Assembly: GCA_964535715.1 (NCBI GenBank)
Contig: CAZHUO010000002.1
Location: forward strand, 16,916-80,915
Source: an uncultured Gammaproteobacteria bacterium
GTDB taxonomy: Bacteria > Patescibacteriota > Patescibacteriia > Buchananbacterales > UBA6539
Direction of reading: 5' to 3'
DNA length: 64,000 nucleotides
Below the pieces are notes generated by a model. The model was not told where the DNA came from. It saw nothing but the letters and a program-made list of their open reading frames with translations, and did not search any database. Below are positions 12,362 through 16,313 of this stretch, piece after piece (positions within the stretch are counted from its first letter, which is position 1; every line of letters starts with the position of its first letter). A program made the position numbers and the translations under genes.

Positions 12362-12378
12362 TTTTTGAATAAAAAAGT

Positions 12379-13962
12379 ATGAAAAAATTTTTTATTTTAG
12401 TTGTCCTTTCTTTTTTAGTTATTCCAATATTCTCAGCCAAAGCAGCAGAAACTCTTGCTCAGCGTCTGAAGGGCTATATCCTTCTTCAGGTTGAAGAGCG
12501 CGGGGAAGCCTGGTATGTAAACCCCGATGATTCAAAAAGATATTACATGAAAGACGGGGTAGTCGCCTATGAAATGCTAAGAGAGTTTGGATTGGGTATT
12601 GCTGATGCAGATTTGGCTAAAATTCCAGTAGGCATTGAAGAAAGGTTTGAAGATACTGATACCGACAAAGACGGCTTAGCCGACAGGCTTGAAGAAGGTT
12701 TGGAAACCAATTTAAATTTAGCAGATACTGACAAAGACGGAGTTTCAGACGGCCAAGAAGTAAAAAGCGGCAATAATCCCTTAGGCGCAGGCAAAATGGC
12801 AGTTGACACCAACTTGGTAGGCAGGCTGAAAGGAAAAATTCTCCTTCAGGTTCAAAAAGCCGGCCAGGCCTGGTATATCAACCCAAAAGACGGCAAGCGT
12901 TACTACATGAAAAACGGCGATGCCGCCTACCAAATCATGAGATTTTTAAGCCTGGGTATTACTAATTCCGATTTGGAGAAGATTACAAAGAGTGATTGGT
13001 CTGTTCCTAATATAAGCCAGTCGAAGTCAGATCATTTTTTTGTTAAAAAAATTACAGATAATTTTTTTTCGCCTAAAATTGATAGTAATAACGGCATATA
13101 CTATTTATCAAGAGGTTCGGAAAATAGTTCAGAACTTAGAAAATTTACATTATCAGCCGATTTAATTATTGCAGAAAAAGGATTATGGAACATATATGTT
13201 GATAATAAAAATAATATCTGGGGCTACAATTCTTATGATGATACTGATGACGGGCTTTATTTTTTGGATAATACAAAATTAACAAAGTTTACTGCTGGTG
13301 ATTATTATTTGAAGTGGGTAAAAGTTGCTTCTGAAAATGATTTTTTACCAAGCAGTTCAATATATGATATAGCTTCAAATTCGGAAGGCTTGTGGATTGC
13401 GACAGATAAAGGTTTGGTGTTTTATAATTATAATACCTGGAAAACATTTACTTATAACGATTGGAAACCGGATGATTATTTCAAAGATAATAGAATAGAC
13501 CAGGTTGAAGCAAATGATTCATATGTGGTATTCAGGTCAGTATTTGATACTTATGTTTATAAGGATGGAAAATTTATTGAAATCAGCGATATGGTTGATG
13601 GTATGTCTGATCTTTATTTGGATGGGAATTTTTTATGGCAATATACTAATAATAGTTATATAACTAAAGGCGTATATAGATATAACATCAATACAAAAGA
13701 ACAAAAATTATTTGGTAATGAAGAAGGATTGGATAATCTTAAAATCGACTCTGTTTCAAAAGATTCTCAAGGAAATCTTTGGTTTGCGGCTAATGCAGAT
13801 AAAGATGAATTTGGTGGATTATACAAATATGACGGCAGCAATTTTACTAAATATTTTAGAGACGAAGGCTCAACTAGTTTCAATTTTTATGATTTATTAA
13901 TTGATTCTAATGATAATATTTATGCATGTGGGTTAGGTGATTTATACAAATTGGAATTTTAA
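12379..13962 (+). CDS. secreted repeat protein with tandem ~60-aa domain, TSP3-like Asp-rich Ca-binding repeats and a C-terminal beta-propeller (Reg_prop-like)
   Basis: A signal peptide is present. LKG(Y/K)ILLQV...AWY(V/I)NP.D.KRYYMK appears twice. DTD(T)DKDG...D motifs occur twice. Confidence 0.7.
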   Translation: MKKFFILVVLSFLVIPIFSAKAAETLAQRLKGYILLQVEERGEAWYVNPDDSKRYYMKDGVVAYEMLREFGLGIADADLAKIPVGIEERFEDTDTDKDGLADRLEEGLETNLNLADTDKDGVSDGQEVKSGNNPLGAGKMAVDTNLVGRLKGKILLQVQKAGQAWYINPKDGKRYYMKNGDAAYQIMRFLSLGITNSDLEKITKSDWSVPNISQSKSDHFFVKKITDNFFSPKIDSNNGIYYLSRGSENSSELRKFTLSADLIIAEKGLWNIYVDNKNNIWGYNSYDDTDDGLYFLDNTKLTKFTAGDYYLKWVKVASENDFLPSSSIYDIASNSEGLWIATDKGLVFYNYNTWKTFTYNDWKPDDYFKDNRIDQVEANDSYVVFRSVFDTYVYKDGKFIEISDMVDGMSDLYLDGNFLWQYTNNSYITKGVYRYNINTKEQKLFGNEEGLDNLKIDSVSKDSQGNLWFAANADKDEFGGLYKYDGSNFTKYFRDEGSTSFNFYDLLIDSNDNIYACGLGDLYKLEF

Positions 13963-13981
13963 TTTAAATTAATTTAAAAAT

Positions 13982-14009
13982 AGCACCTTCATTACGGAGG
14001 TGCTTTTTA
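13982..14009 (+). terminator. intrinsic terminator
   Basis: AGCACCT-tcattacgg-AGGTGCT followed by TTTTT. Confidence 0.65.
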
Positions 14010-14334
14010 ATGGTTTTTTTTGCCACCTATGGGCAAAATTTCGCCACAGCGAGAGCATGGCTCGCAGCCTTTTATTTTGTGTCCGACCCATGAACACCAA
14101 AGAGCATACCAAATCCATTTTTTTAGAATAATTTTCCTTTCCTCTGAAATTGAACTCTTGCCGTTTTTTTTTGCGATTTCTTTTGCGCCGTTTCTGTGAT
14201 TTTTTTTCATTTTCTCACCCTTTTAAGTTAGTATGGATTAGTCCTAAACAGCAAAGGATGATACTTTTATATTACTTCAATTTAATAAAAAAAGCCATCT
14301 ATGATGGCGTAGTATTAATATGTAAATTATTATT

Positions 14335-14369
14335 AAATCCTAAACTCTAAATCCTAAATCCTAAATTCC
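14335..14369. repeat. tandem heptamer-like repeat (TAAATCC)n
   Basis: aaatcctaaactctaaatcctaaatcctaaattcc. An inverted partial copy AGGATTTAA lies at about 14470. Confidence 0.5.
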
Positions 14370-14484
14370 AATTCTCCAAACGTTTGGAATTTATAATTTG
14401 TTATTTAGAATTTATTCGCCGAAGGCGAATCGCCGCCATTGGCGGGCAAGCGCCTACGGCGGAGATATTAGGATTTAAAATTTC

Positions 14485-15216
14485 TTATCGGCCTTCTTTT
14501 TTATCAAACTCTTTATTTTGGATTTCAACCAGTGTCGCTTTCGGCACAGTATCAAATAATTCAATGACGTCTTTATTTATCATCCGAATACAGCCATGGG
14601 AAGCCGGCTCGCCGATAAGGCCTTCCTCGTTAGTTCCATGAATAAATATGCCCCTTTGAGCGGAATTATCATTTATTCCTTTTTCCAAACCCTCAAGCGC
14701 TAAAAGCCTGGTAGTCATTAAATCACTAGGTGCTTGGACGTGCTCGGTATATATTGTAGTTTTGCCTTTTTTGCTTTGTTTTTCAAAAACAGTCCCTAAC
14801 TCTGCATTGTCGCCGATTTTAGCAGATATGCGGTGAGTTCCAAAAGGCGTTTTATTGCTATTATTTTTATTGCTAATACCTTTGGCAGCGGTTGAAATAT
14901 TATATGATTTGACAATTTGGTTATCTTTTACAAGAAGCATTTCCTGACGTTCAGGGTTAATGACTATGGCGAATTCTTCGGGTTTTAAATTGAAGTTGCT
15001 GGTTAATTTTTCTACGCTTTCCTTGATTTCTTCCCAGATTTGCTCCGGCGTTCTTTCTTGCTCTTTTTGTTCTGCGTCAGCTGATTTTAAAGAAAGCAGT
15101 TCTTTGGCAGCTAAAGCGCCAAAAAAGGCCTGTTTTAAAAATTCACGACGAGTTGGCTTGTTATTTTTTTCAGTTTTAGATTCTTCCGTTTCCGGATTAA
15201 ATGTTTCTTTTTCCAT
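14485..15216 (-). CDS. L,D-transpeptidase (YkuD domain) with a Tat-like signal
   Basis: SHGCIRM catalytic motif. The N-terminal [16 protein letters not shown] matches the twin-arginine consensus. Confidence 0.8.
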
Positions 15217-15254
15217 AAGAAATAATGTAATTTATTGGCGACGTAGGGCGAGAG

Positions 15255-15357
15255 TCCCGCACCTATTTTACTCATCAATCATTTTCAAGATTAATTTTTT
15301 CTACAGTATAAAATAAATTATTTAACCTAAACAGTGATCAGTAAAATAGGTGCGGGA
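15255..15357. repeat. 18-bp perfect (about 24-bp imperfect) inverted repeat with a 67-nt AT-rich loop; CCCGCAC-core hairpin family
   Basis: TCCCGCACCTATTTTACT (15255-15272) and AGTAAAATAGGTGCGGGA (15340-15357) are exact reverse complements. Confidence 0.6.
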
Positions 15358-15585
15358 TCTAGTTAAGCCGCTACGACGCAGGTTTAATTAATGAATCTTA
15401 TCGTGAAAAGGGAGCCATCAAAGGGTGAAATACCCGAAAGCGCTCCGTCGCCAAAGCGGTACTTATCCAGTTTTGACGCGTCAACGACTTGTCCCGATTA
15501 ATCCTTCGCCTTTGGCGGAGTGAAAAATCTTAGATCCCGTCTTATTCATATCTAATTATAAAGCGGGACTCCGTGGTTAATACCC
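15358..15585. ncRNA. GC-richer structured noncoding region (candidate ncRNA or leader of the LDT gene on the - strand); identity unresolved
   Basis: Multiple local hairpins are present, including GGGTGAAATACCC. TTGACGCGTCAA (15473-15484) is a perfect 12-bp palindrome. No ORF is compatible with the AT-rich host style. Confidence 0.25.
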
Positions 15586-15634
15586 TTTATTAAATATATT
15601 TGGTCGGGCTGGGGAGATTCGAACTCCCGACCTC
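15586..15634 (-). repeat. truncated direct copy of the tRNA-Pro 3' end (positions ~43-76 incl. CCA) plus 15 nt of 3' flank
   Basis: 49/49 identity to 16131-16179. Confidence 0.75.
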
Positions 15635-15790
15635 CCCGCACTAATGTCCGCGAATTGGCATTTTTGAAATTTAAAGTTAGATTAGCGCGAACACCGCCTG
15701 CGGCTGGTATTTCAAGAGATGAGACAAGATAATAGACATGGTGCGGGGCAGGCATCATCCCGAACTTAAGTAAAGCAATTTTTAATTCTC

Positions 15791-15847
15791 TCGGGCTGGG
15801 GAGATTCGAACTCCCGACCTCATCGTCCCGAACGATGCGCGCTAGCC
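15791..15847 (-). repeat. truncated direct copy of tRNA-Pro (positions ~17-73, no CCA)
   Basis: 57/57 identity to 16149-16205. The stop codon of the GIY-YIG ORF lies inside it. Confidence 0.75.
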
Positions 15848-16123
15848 CCCGCCAGAGGCGGGTCGGCCTTTGGCGGAAGCTGCTCTAATAATTATATTAC
15901 GAACTTGTCTTCCAAATCCACTTTTGTAAAATTTTTCTCTCATAATAGCATCCTGTTCGCATAAGTATTTTTCAAAATATAATAATATTAGATGACCATT
16001 CTCACGTGTCCATTTGTTCGATTTCTGATTATGTTGTTTTAATCTGTCTTCTGGATTAATTTTTGAGTAACCGACGTATATCTTTCCATTTTTTATACTT
16101 TTTAAAAAATATACATAAAACAT
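15842..16123 (-). CDS. small GIY-YIG nuclease family protein (UPF0213/YhbQ-like), 93 aa
   Basis: YVYFLKS...KIYVGYS...R..QH GIY-YIG motif. Paralogous to the 31225 gene. The C-terminus reads into the tRNA remnant. Confidence 0.7.
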   Translation of the reverse strand: MFYVYFLKSIKNGKIYVGYSKINPEDRLKQHNQKSNKWTRENGHLILLYFEKYLCEQDAIMREKFYKSGFGRQVRNIIIRAASAKGRPASGGG

Positions 16124-16145
16124 AATGTAATTTATTAAATATATT

Positions 16146-16222
16146 TGGTCGGGCTGGGGAGATTCGAACTCCCGACCTCATCGTCCCGAACGATGCGCGC
16201 TAGCCAGCTGCGCTACAGCCCG
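16146..16222 (-). tRNA. tRNA-Pro (anticodon CGG), 77 nt with encoded CCA
   Basis: Manual cloverleaf fold gives a 7-bp acceptor stem, 4-bp D stem, 5-bp anticodon stem, loop UUCGGGA with G37, 5-bp T stem with T-loop TTCGAAT, discriminator A and 3' CCA. Confidence 0.85.
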
Positions 16223-16313
16223 ATAAATAGCGATTAACCAATAACGGTTAACAGTCAATTATTATAGTTTATATTCTTTTTAGTATAAAATCAAGTTTAA
16301 GCCAAAAAGATAA

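Follow-up and report, generated by a model that had tools for sequence, protein, structure and literature searches.

The 64-kb stretch of contig CAZHUO010000002.1 analysed here (hereafter the window; 35% GC) carries, on its minus strand, a gene for a small nuclease of the GIY-YIG superfamily that lies between an intact tRNA-Pro(CGG) gene and truncated copies of the same tRNA. Taken together, the data point to this locus probably being a single member of a family of tiny, recurrent selfish cassettes of the homing type, each driven by its nuclease and targeting tRNA genes. The class is defined by adjacency to a tRNA gene, by a compensating partial duplication of that tRNA, and by a covarying double hairpin in the D-loop of the duplicate. 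Confidence in the cassette class is high, while confidence in the mechanism is moderate to low. The arrangement is seemingly an undescribed variant of free-standing homing-type nuclease cassettes: a full-text literature search of incomplete coverage returned no account of bacterial genes for small GIY-YIG proteins that adjoin tRNA genes and their hairpin-interrupted copies, and a prior description is possible.

The sole tRNA called by ARAGORN in the window is tRNA-Pro(CGG), whose intact gene lies on the minus strand at 16146-16222, has its CCA encoded and scores 65.2 bits against Rfam RF00005; nucleotide (nt) positions in tRNAs refer to this molecule unless another is named. ARAGORN and Rfam thereby agree on the complete tRNA that an initial sequence-only reading of the stretch had proposed. 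Just 5' of the gene, a consensus scan revealed a sigma-70-like promoter match (TTTATA-17-TATAAT, 10/12; 16261-16289, minus strand). No terminator-like site was found between the tRNA and the downstream L,D-transpeptidase (LDT) gene, so that co-transcription is possible.

Two partial copies of the tRNA lie 3' of it in direct orientation, and both, noticed in the sequence-only reading, proved exact. Specifically, copy B (15791-15847, minus strand) repeats nt 18-74, without CCA, as 57 nt that are 100% identical to 16149-16205, while copy C (15586-15634, minus strand) repeats the 34 nt of nt 44-77, with CCA, together with 15 nt of flank, as 49 nt that match 16131-16179 at 100%. Exact repeats of this length are far beyond chance in a window of this size and composition, and a blastn self-search detected no further long repeat of the tRNA region within it. 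Copy B reaches 30.6 bits with the Rfam tRNA model over 15791-15861 (gathering score 29) and is not called as a tRNA by ARAGORN; several of its acceptor-stem pairs, plus one D-stem pair, are non-canonical in the Rfam alignment, and because the acceptor stem is unpaired, copy B is considered a pseudo-tRNA. The notion that copy C might be a tmRNA or tRNA-like molecule was dropped, given that it has no matching 5' acceptor strand and a partial match of just 14 bits. When the tRNA was aligned with the sequence 3' of it, gaps being allowed, a D-arm remnant was further identified, AGAGCAGCT (15878-15886, minus strand), which corresponds to nt 9-17 with 8/9 identities and includes the locus-specific CAGCT. 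The truncated copy is moreover interrupted between nt 17 and 18 by a 30-nt double-hairpin module, TCCGCCAAAGGCCGA-CCCGCCTCTGGCGGG (15848-15877, minus strand), recognised both from this alignment and from covariation in homologous modules. The window contains exactly one such module in its 64 kb.

On the minus strand, the order of elements is thus tRNA-Pro(CGG), 22 nt, the GIY-YIG open reading frame (ORF), the D-arm remnant, the module, tRNA nt 18-74 and 156 nt of spacer. This arrangement is bracketed by a 58-nt direct repeat composed of tRNA nt 44-77 and 24 nt of locus-specific downstream flank. The left copy of the repeat is continuous (16122-16179, minus strand, exact matches), with the minus strand reading tRNA CCA-AATATATTTAATAAATTACATTAT and then the G of the GIY-YIG start codon. 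The right copy is in two pieces that overlap by AATAAA: copy C forms the first, and the second is AATAAATTACATTAT (15222-15236, minus strand, exact match), which is identical to 16122-16136, so that the same sequence stands 5' of the GIY-YIG start and directly 5' of the LDT start. Downstream of copy C the minus strand reads AATATATTTAATAAA, 349 nt and then AATAAATTACATTAT-TTCTTATG, the last being the LDT start; deletion of the 349 nt and one AATAAA recovers the 24-nt flank (AATATATTTAATAAATTACATTAT) seen beside the intact tRNA. The early suspicion that a sequence common to the two start codons marks a recombination junction was borne out, as the AATAAATTACATT junction is the boundary of the duplication.

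The block between the 58-nt repeats measures 487 nt (16121 to 15635) and consists of the GIY-YIG ORF, the hairpin module, copy B and the 156-nt spacer, with copy B internal to the block and not at its edge. As the block is bracketed in this way, an empty site can be reconstructed in which the LDT start would follow tRNA-Pro after 32 nt, the sequence tRNA-Pro...AATAAATTACATTAT being joined directly to TTCTTATGGAAAAAG. The host gene 3' of this reconstructed site is that of the LDT (YkuD; 14485-15216, minus strand; PF03734, E=1.3e-22).

The nuclease gene itself (15842-16123, minus strand) encodes a 93-aa, Slx1/UPF0213-like protein that matches PF01541 over residues 1-72 (E=4.8e-15; 56.1 bits versus a cut-off of 22.6). 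Its stop codon, TAG at 15842-15844, lies inside copy B, as the sequence-only reading had noted, and belongs to the tRNA D-stem. The final ~13 codons (15842-15886) comprise the nine nt of the D-arm remnant, the 30-nt module, GGC and the stop, and the protein ends in ...RAASAKGRPASGGG because the ORF reads through the module insert. Close protein relatives are few, with 13 matches in the homologue search, and exact-protein look-ups returned no further contig carrying an identical protein. Residues Y5, Y16, G18, R27, H31, N32 and E63 are invariant in the 13 homologues and would fit an active GIY-YIG site, where we take the conserved Tyr, Arg and metal-binding Glu to have catalytic roles by analogy with I-TevI and UvrC.

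Both profile and structure comparisons place the protein nearer to UPF0213 and Slx1 than to Seg/I-TevI or UvrC. Profile searches of PDB returned the UPF0213 structures 1ywl (1.5e-7) and 1zg2 (2.4e-7) followed by Slx1 (6e-4), with no I-TevI or UvrC match below 0.01, and the score against TIGR01453 was 21.8 bits versus a cut-off of 56. The AlphaFold model (predicted local distance difference test, pLDDT, 88; tail low-confidence, 41-69) predicts a three-stranded sheet and helices, as in the GIY-YIG superfamily, and Foldseek matched it with UPF0213 and Slx1 or Slx1-Slx4 structures (prob 1.0, root-mean-square deviation 2.1-4.0 A), then more weakly with the I-TevI catalytic domain. The protein is a single domain of 93 aa, and neither the RING/PHD domain nor the Slx4 partner of eukaryotic Slx1 was found with it; libraries of homing-endonuclease, phage and defence profiles gave just marginal, sub-threshold matches. 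Ratios of nonsynonymous to synonymous substitution (dN/dS) between close pairs range from 0.05 to 0.29, and the protein is under purifying selection. Prokaryotic Slx1-like domains have been described as fused to, or in operons with, COG4123 methylases, and as linked to a TrmH-like enzyme modifying tRNA nt 18 (2006 superfamily survey, PMC1564403, section 11). Such an association is a lead, not a test, tying this subfamily to tRNA. COG4123 is the tRNA methylase now called TrmN6.

A scan of relatives with one genome per species yielded 378 matching stretches, from which 80 loci, picked by similarity, were fetched. Within the 82 non-redundant loci encoding nuclease relatives, a same-strand tRNA abuts the nuclease ORF in 53, compared with 0.6 expected from the tRNA density in far flanks; a same-strand tRNA lies within 150 nt of the ORF in 62, and an opposite-strand tRNA at that distance in just one. 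These loci make use of 23 isoacceptors. The sequence-only reading had considered satellite-like elements, an idea that is not sustained given that the sole gene in the block itself encodes a nuclease and that the same layout recurs at 23 isoacceptors. The closest homologues (62-69% identity) are encoded at L001, L002 and L089, all of which adjoin tRNAs. At L001, tRNA-Pro(GGG) is followed 1 nt later by the ATG of the GIY-YIG ORF, by a module and by 23 nt that duplicate the T-arm and acceptor end. Similarly, L002 presents tRNA-Val(CAC), the GIY-YIG gene, a module and a 5'-truncated, diverged tRNA-Val(CAC), the changes in which, by inspection, leave the anticodon and T stems able to pair, so that it is another allele. 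The closest of all, L089 (69%), contains tRNA-Val(TAC), the GIY-YIG gene and a module-interrupted, diverged copy, as well as a second truncated copy that repeats the end of the resident tRNA with its flank, reproducing the nested layout of the window at a different tRNA.

Two configurations account for these arrangements. In type A (14 loci, 2 of them with tRNAs on both sides, and the window), the end of a complete tRNA is separated from the ATG by 0-23 nt, and the ORF is followed by a 5'-truncated copy. Type B (39 loci) has a 3'-truncated copy, spanning nt 1 to about 22-38, ahead of the ATG, and here the ORF extends into the complete tRNA, where the stop codon starts at nt 8 (U8-A9-G10) in 17 of the 39 loci and at nt 21 in 10; 33 of the 39 stops are TAG. 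Both types are found at loci with a common recA-side left flank, as judged by flank similarity, with RecA annotated for L001. Repeat boundaries vary (nt 8-12, 44 and 47-53), with duplications of the 5' part predominating, and outer repeats that include local flank measure 58 nt in the window, 32 nt in L089 and at least 135 nt in L020. The partial duplication means that an intact tRNA is always retained, and insertion would be harmless.

Several further features of individual loci were observed. At L007 (2414-2499), the "complete" tRNA-Pro(TGG) beside the GIY-YIG gene contains an 11-nt tandem duplication (GGCTAGAGCAT x2) from nt 18, starting exactly at the module insertion point, and ARAGORN miscalls it as an 86-nt tRNA-Cys; the duplication may represent a footprint, or else an error of assembly. 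The recA-flanked locus of L013 is syntenic with those of L001, L008 and L012 apart from its tRNA-Pro(GGG)+GIY unit, which is inverted relative to both flanks. An array of another GC-rich hairpin type (e.g. CCCCGTAGCAAGCCGAAGGCTTTGCTATGGGG) occupies 3270-3560 of L002, 5' of a tRNA-Ala/tRNA-Val/GIY cluster in an otherwise AT-rich genome.

The double-hairpin module accompanies these genes with high specificity. In its typical form it consists of two successive 15-nt units, TCnGCC-nnn-GGCnGA, and it occurs at 47 places in the fetched loci, a census that rises to 50 with the addition of L089 and L090. All 47 lie within 600 nt of a GIY-YIG gene, and a search of ~290 kb of more distant flank and of 350 kb from unrelated control loci found none. 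These control loci derive from a metagenome scan with the shared 31-nt tRNA 3' half, which returned only unrelated high-GC genomes with single copies. In the commonest context (22/50), the module interrupts ...AGTT^GG(T/C)TAG..., that is, the D-loop between nt 17 and 18; further sites are TAGCT^CAGTTGG, GCT^GGTTCG in the T arm, and a replaced anticodon arm, and some dead tRNA copies hold two or three modules (L089, L090). Other lineages display a single unit, or CCTGCC-nnnn-GGCAGG.

Covariation supports a structure of two hairpins. Across 28 homologous modules, 99.1% of cells pair and 6 of the 12 pairs change on both sides, with AU, GC and CG alternating at the third stem position, a result reached by 0 of 500 shuffles; the alternative of a single, 30-nt long hairpin was rejected, as its pair counts were no better than those of shuffles. 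Simpler GCC/GGC hairpins are likewise 32-fold enriched within 150 nt of ORF ends (4.15 vs 0.13 per kb). In type A the module is located within the 3' end of the ORF, and in type B it precedes the ORF; it is always in the dead tRNA copy, which makes the pseudo-tRNA, and not a fixed position in the mRNA, its constant partner. The module could serve as a nuclease recognition or immunity site, as a recombination block, or as a stabiliser of RNA ends.

Hairpins of related or different kinds were seen in other settings as well. Just past the LDT stop at 14485, positions 14416-14463 of the minus strand hold three tandem GC-rich mini-hairpins (CTCCGCCGTAGGCG / CCCGCCAATGGCGG / TCGCCTTCGGCGA) with a period of 17-18 nt and of the same GCCnnnGGC type as the module, with no adjoining tRNA remnant or GIY-YIG gene. 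After tRNA-Leu(GAG) in L089 (240-390) stand two tandem units of tRNA-Leu T-arm and 3' end whose T-loop is split by two hairpins (TCCGCCAGAGGCGGA + CCCCGACTTTACGTCGGGG); no GIY-YIG gene lies between them, and the second terminates in sequence resembling the anticodon arm of the following tRNA-Val. A common long-hairpin element of ~35 nt, ACAGCGTAATAAAT...GCGATTTAAACGCTGT, lies 3' of a truncated tRNA copy in L012 (~2837-2900) and L021 (~2852-2920), that is, in two genomes and at two different tRNAs, and may be another cassette-associated non-coding element. In L017 (2790-2840), the acceptor 5' strand pairs with a complementary sequence over 8 bp (GGAGTTGG...CCAACTCC), and the resulting stem encloses the module-bearing D-arm, a hint that a compact fold is preserved in some pseudo-tRNA fragments.

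A first alternative explanation is centred upon the hairpin itself, in the manner of repetitive extragenic palindromic (REP) sequences and their REP-associated tyrosine transposases (RAYT). Here the mobile unit would be the 15-nt hairpin TCnGCCnnnGGCnGA, inserted or maintained by a structure-specific nuclease at loop-forming sites of tRNA genes and surviving only in dead copies, and the nuclease gene would be carried along with it. Modules do lie precisely at the D-loop, T-arm or anticodon arm, several per pseudo-tRNA in L089 and L090, and the locus-specific tRNA sequence on both sides of the module is suggestive of clean insertion; conservation of the hairpin extends across phyla and is accompanied by covariation, the Slx1 family cleaves branched and stem-loop DNA (PDB 6seh title), and single similar hairpins exist elsewhere, such as the three at 14416-14463. 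Unlike dispersed REPs, however, the double module was encountered solely beside GIY-YIG genes, no functional tRNA carries it, such that insertion activity is not directly visible, and gene conversion between repeats could equally yield flanks that look local. This explanation overlaps that of a selfish nuclease cassette, differing mainly in what moves, and as a separate account it appears unlikely.

Evidence that the cassettes move comes from comparison of related loci. When each nuclease was compared with its nearest-neighbour protein, the two genes adjoined different tRNAs in 31 cases, tRNAs for one amino acid with different anticodons in 10, and an identical tRNA in 12, and decayed or truncated genes and tandem arrays are present at L005, L007, L020, L039, L053, L064 and L065. 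L005 contains a hairpin-interrupted pseudo-tRNA-Phe, tRNA-Phe and a remnant of ~50 codons of a GIY-YIG gene, whereas the equivalent site in L006 has just a plain tRNA-Phe in flanks that are 83% identical; this constitutes one empty site among relatives. The GIY-YIG regions of L005 and L006 are 94.8% identical, with a synonymous divergence (dS) of 0.34 compared with 0.86 for the flanking gene, and in the pair L010/L011 the corresponding values are 0.42 and 1.2-1.65. Truncated tRNA copies that have diverged and yet still form stems are found in L002 and L089. The search for empty sites, a check proposed in the sequence-only reading, thus gave one case in relatives and none for the window locus itself, and the L006-L005 pair speaks against the possibility, weighed in that reading, of an identical architecture everywhere with repeats held as part of a larger non-coding RNA.

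These same comparisons bear upon a second alternative, in which the gene is a useful, vertically inherited host nuclease of the Slx1/UPF0213 type, perhaps acting on tRNA or in repair, that is kept beside tRNAs for co-transcription, the tRNA fragments arising from slippage or unequal crossing-over. The low dN/dS values are in keeping with a resident gene, as are its retained location at the recA-flanked tRNA-Pro(GGG) and at tRNA-Val(CAC) across genera, the fusion or operon linkage of Slx1-like proteins with TrmH-like tRNA methylase and COG4123 methylases (PMC1564403, section 11), and the lack of relatives in viral contigs. Residence is difficult to reconcile with nearest relatives that usually sit at different tRNAs, with truncated, decayed and tandem copies, with the empty site of L006 vs L005, with the diverged, foreign-looking pseudo-tRNA copies of L002 and L089, with a cassette-specific module found solely beside these GIY-YIG genes, or with GIY-YIG dS below flank dS in two pairs. 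On balance, a purely resident gene seems quite improbable.

Serial site-specific integration at the tRNA-Pro 3' end, giving three tandem mini-cassettes bounded by tRNA repeats resembling attachment (att) sites with the integrase lost or acting in trans, has in its favour the nested direct repeats of the tRNA 3' end with CCA and flank and the retention of an intact tRNA, yet is very improbable, because no recombinase lies within ~9 kb, the inner copy has no CCA and begins at the D-loop beside a conserved hairpin module, the layout recurs at 23 isoacceptors with the nuclease as sole gene, the repeat boundaries vary and the 5' part of the tRNA is duplicated in 39 loci, which is unexpected from an integrase acting on tRNA 3' ends, and the 349-nt segment, with a 6-bp duplication peculiar to it, has no tRNA repeats at its boundaries. 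What survives of the sequence-only reading in this respect is that the repeats are scars of insertion beside a tRNA gene, lacking att sites of the integrase type, and that the GIY-YIG segment is a small, mobile-type cassette, the three proposed cassettes not being equivalent. Neither a recombinase nor a phage gene occurs within ~9 kb.

The selfish-cassette interpretation can be set out as a provisional sequence of events. The mobile unit would consist of the nuclease gene and the module-interrupted pseudo-tRNA. The nuclease would break tRNA-gene DNA in or near conserved loops, and repair or recombination using the tRNA-derived arms of the cassette-bearing copy would copy the gene in, with variable-length duplications and sometimes tandem arrays as the outcome. 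Recombination or break repair on the 3' side of the module would give type A and on its 5' side type B; outer repeats with local flank would represent duplications made in repair, with no fixed att site. Gene conversion between neighbouring copies may have produced the 57/57 identity in the window and the divergence in L002 and L089. Having neither promoter nor stop codon of its own, the nuclease gene would be read from the tRNA transcript or promoter and would end at the conserved tRNA TAG. Lastly, the 349-nt MITE-like element (resembling miniature inverted-repeat transposable elements) entered the right repeat at a later time, with the 6-bp duplication.

Several observations weigh against this interpretation. 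Firstly, no empty site or polymorphism was found at the window locus, where independent assemblies show the same layout, and in two other pairs GIY-YIG dS is not below flank dS. Secondly, the cassettes at common-flank loci across genera (recA / tRNA-Pro(GGG)), together with purifying selection, also fit a long-resident useful gene. Thirdly, the protein possesses no domain beyond a catalytic core of 70-80 aa, unlike characterised homing endonucleases with their DNA-binding module, and the viral contigs searched contain no relatives of the nuclease. Additionally, the presumed target site persists in the adjacent intact tRNA, and the interpretation gives no account of how self-cleavage is avoided; the sample examined amounts to 80 of the 378 matching stretches.

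The independent assemblies in question are Logan contigs. Logan assemblies use k=31. Contig L092, from another sequencing run, is 100% identical to the window and ends at 16176, or tRNA nt 47, precisely where a k=31 graph, the value assumed here, branches if copy B is present, which indicates the same architecture in another sample; the idea that copy B is absent from L092 was rejected, as k-mer counts indicate its presence. Logan contigs with identical LDT, UppS and membrane protein all end at repeats, those bearing the LDT ending inside the long hairpin at ~15260-15271. One contig with an identical LDT protein, L084 (run SRR29243437), is without the 527-aa secreted beta-propeller-repeat gene at 12379-13962 (window 12377-13975), and is just 94.9% identical to the window over 13976-15271 compared with 99.2% over the remainder; the difference is a strain-level indel combined with a local hot spot of divergence.

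The 349-nt non-coding segment (15237-15585, no strand assigned), delimited by comparison with the uninterrupted flank of the intact tRNA, is a separate, later insertion into the right repeat and is MITE-like in character. It is flanked by the 6-bp target duplication AATAAA, has imperfect terminal inverted repeats (GG...GAGTCCCGC), and contains a near-perfect long hairpin of ~140 nt (15237-15377), directly 5' of the LDT start, as well as one decayed hairpin unit at about 15505-15519. It folds strongly on both strands (z=-5.7 and -5.3), in line with the 350-nt structured segment first described; the idea that it is a tRNA-bounded cassette failed, since its duplication is its own AATAAA and no tRNA repeats bound it. 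No second copy was found in the window or in the fetched loci. The 156-nt spacer (15635-15790, minus strand), also unique in the window and fetched loci, corresponds to a segment described as 160 nt and hairpin-forming, which is present and proves just modestly structured (z=-2.2 with flanks). It contains one imperfect GCCnnnGGC hairpin and a weak HHVYYLVSS match to GIY-YIG N-termini (tblastn E=0.07, tiny database), and is at most a decayed remnant, possibly of a second cassette; a second gene in 15217-15845 was rejected, as tblastn with family proteins gave just that N-terminal match, which is too weak. An Rfam scan at E<=1 revealed nothing real in either segment, its miRNA matches merely reflecting the long hairpin of the 349-nt segment.

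Among known systems, SegB of phages T4 and T6 is a free-standing GIY-YIG homing endonuclease encoded in a tRNA gene cluster, and the breaks it makes lead to homology-mediated amplification of tRNA+segB segments via short homologies, giving tandem arrays (PMC13096335, citing Brok-Volchanskaya 2008, PMC2330249). SegB is the nearest functional counterpart of the cassette: in each case a GIY-YIG gene lies among tRNA genes of many isotypes, and SegB cuts tRNA-containing DNA. The differences are that SegB is phage-encoded, whereas the window protein is a chromosomal, Slx1/UPF0213-like catalytic core of 93 aa, and that neither a hairpin module nor a D-loop-interrupted pseudo-tRNA has been described for SegB. 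SegB is about 220 aa long and includes a DNA-binding part.

Fungal mitochondria provide a second parallel. Paquin and colleagues are said to have reported in 1994 that a free-standing mitochondrial GIY-YIG ORF in the 3' part of the Allomyces atp6 gene leaves a duplicated, displaced gene end. In such cases, the incoming gene brings or creates a substitute for the interrupted end, which keeps the host gene whole and leaves a truncated duplicate beside it, a logic that the diverged duplicates of L002 and L089 also fit; these ORFs differ in having organellar, protein-coding targets, no hairpin module and no systematic use of many targets. Closer to the present hosts, Tsurumaki et al. (2024, PMC11270868) described insertions in rRNA genes of the Candidate Phyla Radiation (CPR) that carry GIY-YIG ORFs, are neither group I nor group II introns, and are located at stem-loop tops or bases. 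They share with the cassette the host group (Patescibacteria) and a structured-RNA gene as target, and differ in that they interrupt the rRNA genes, with no reported compensating duplication; tRNA is mentioned 0 times in that work (PMC11270868).

Islands and prophages that target tRNA genes by means of a tyrosine integrase resemble the cassette in their tRNA 3'-end direct repeats and in the restoration of an intact tRNA at one junction. They are set apart by the lack of an integrase or fixed core in the cassette, its 5'-part duplications in type B, its D-loop hairpin and its size of 0.3-0.5 kb. REP/RAYT systems likewise combine a short, conserved, covarying hairpin with genetic linkage to one nuclease-type gene, yet the cassette enzyme is of the GIY-YIG and not the HUH Y1 type, and the double module is confined to the cassette and not dispersed. 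Finally, stand-alone UPF0213 or bacterial Slx1-like proteins (1ywl, 1zg2) provide the best sequence and fold matches, are of the same size and are single-domain; the group includes E. coli YhbQ and B. subtilis YazA. A tRNA-embedded, duplication-flanked context was not found described for UPF0213 proteins.

A more far-reaching version of the cassette interpretation, advanced tentatively and with a modest chance of being correct, is that of a minimal mobile element in which a single-domain, structure-specific Slx1-like nuclease and a 15-nt hairpin together recognise the loop-forming (cloverleaf) DNA of tRNA, and perhaps rRNA, genes in place of an extended sequence. Such an element would thereby be able to hop among any tRNA genes, insert its hairpin precisely at nt 17/18 or in other loops, and spread by break-induced partial duplication.

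Should these proposals hold, the tRNA genes of Patescibacteria and of several other phyla would harbour a common, overlooked selfish gene that solves the problem of insertion into an essential gene by duplicating part of its target, and that borrows tRNA transcription as well as tRNA TAG triplets, the latter as stop codons. Annotation is affected as well: cassette loci are liable to be called as additional or unusual tRNAs (L002, L007), and the class would account for many orphan annotations of "GIY-YIG nuclease family protein" and for pseudo-tRNA fragments seen in genome-resolved metagenomes. Bacterial Slx1/UPF0213 proteins would gain a concrete biological setting, and a defined 30-nt hairpin and a 93-aa enzyme would be to hand with which structure-specific or tRNA-gene-specific cutting could be tested directly.

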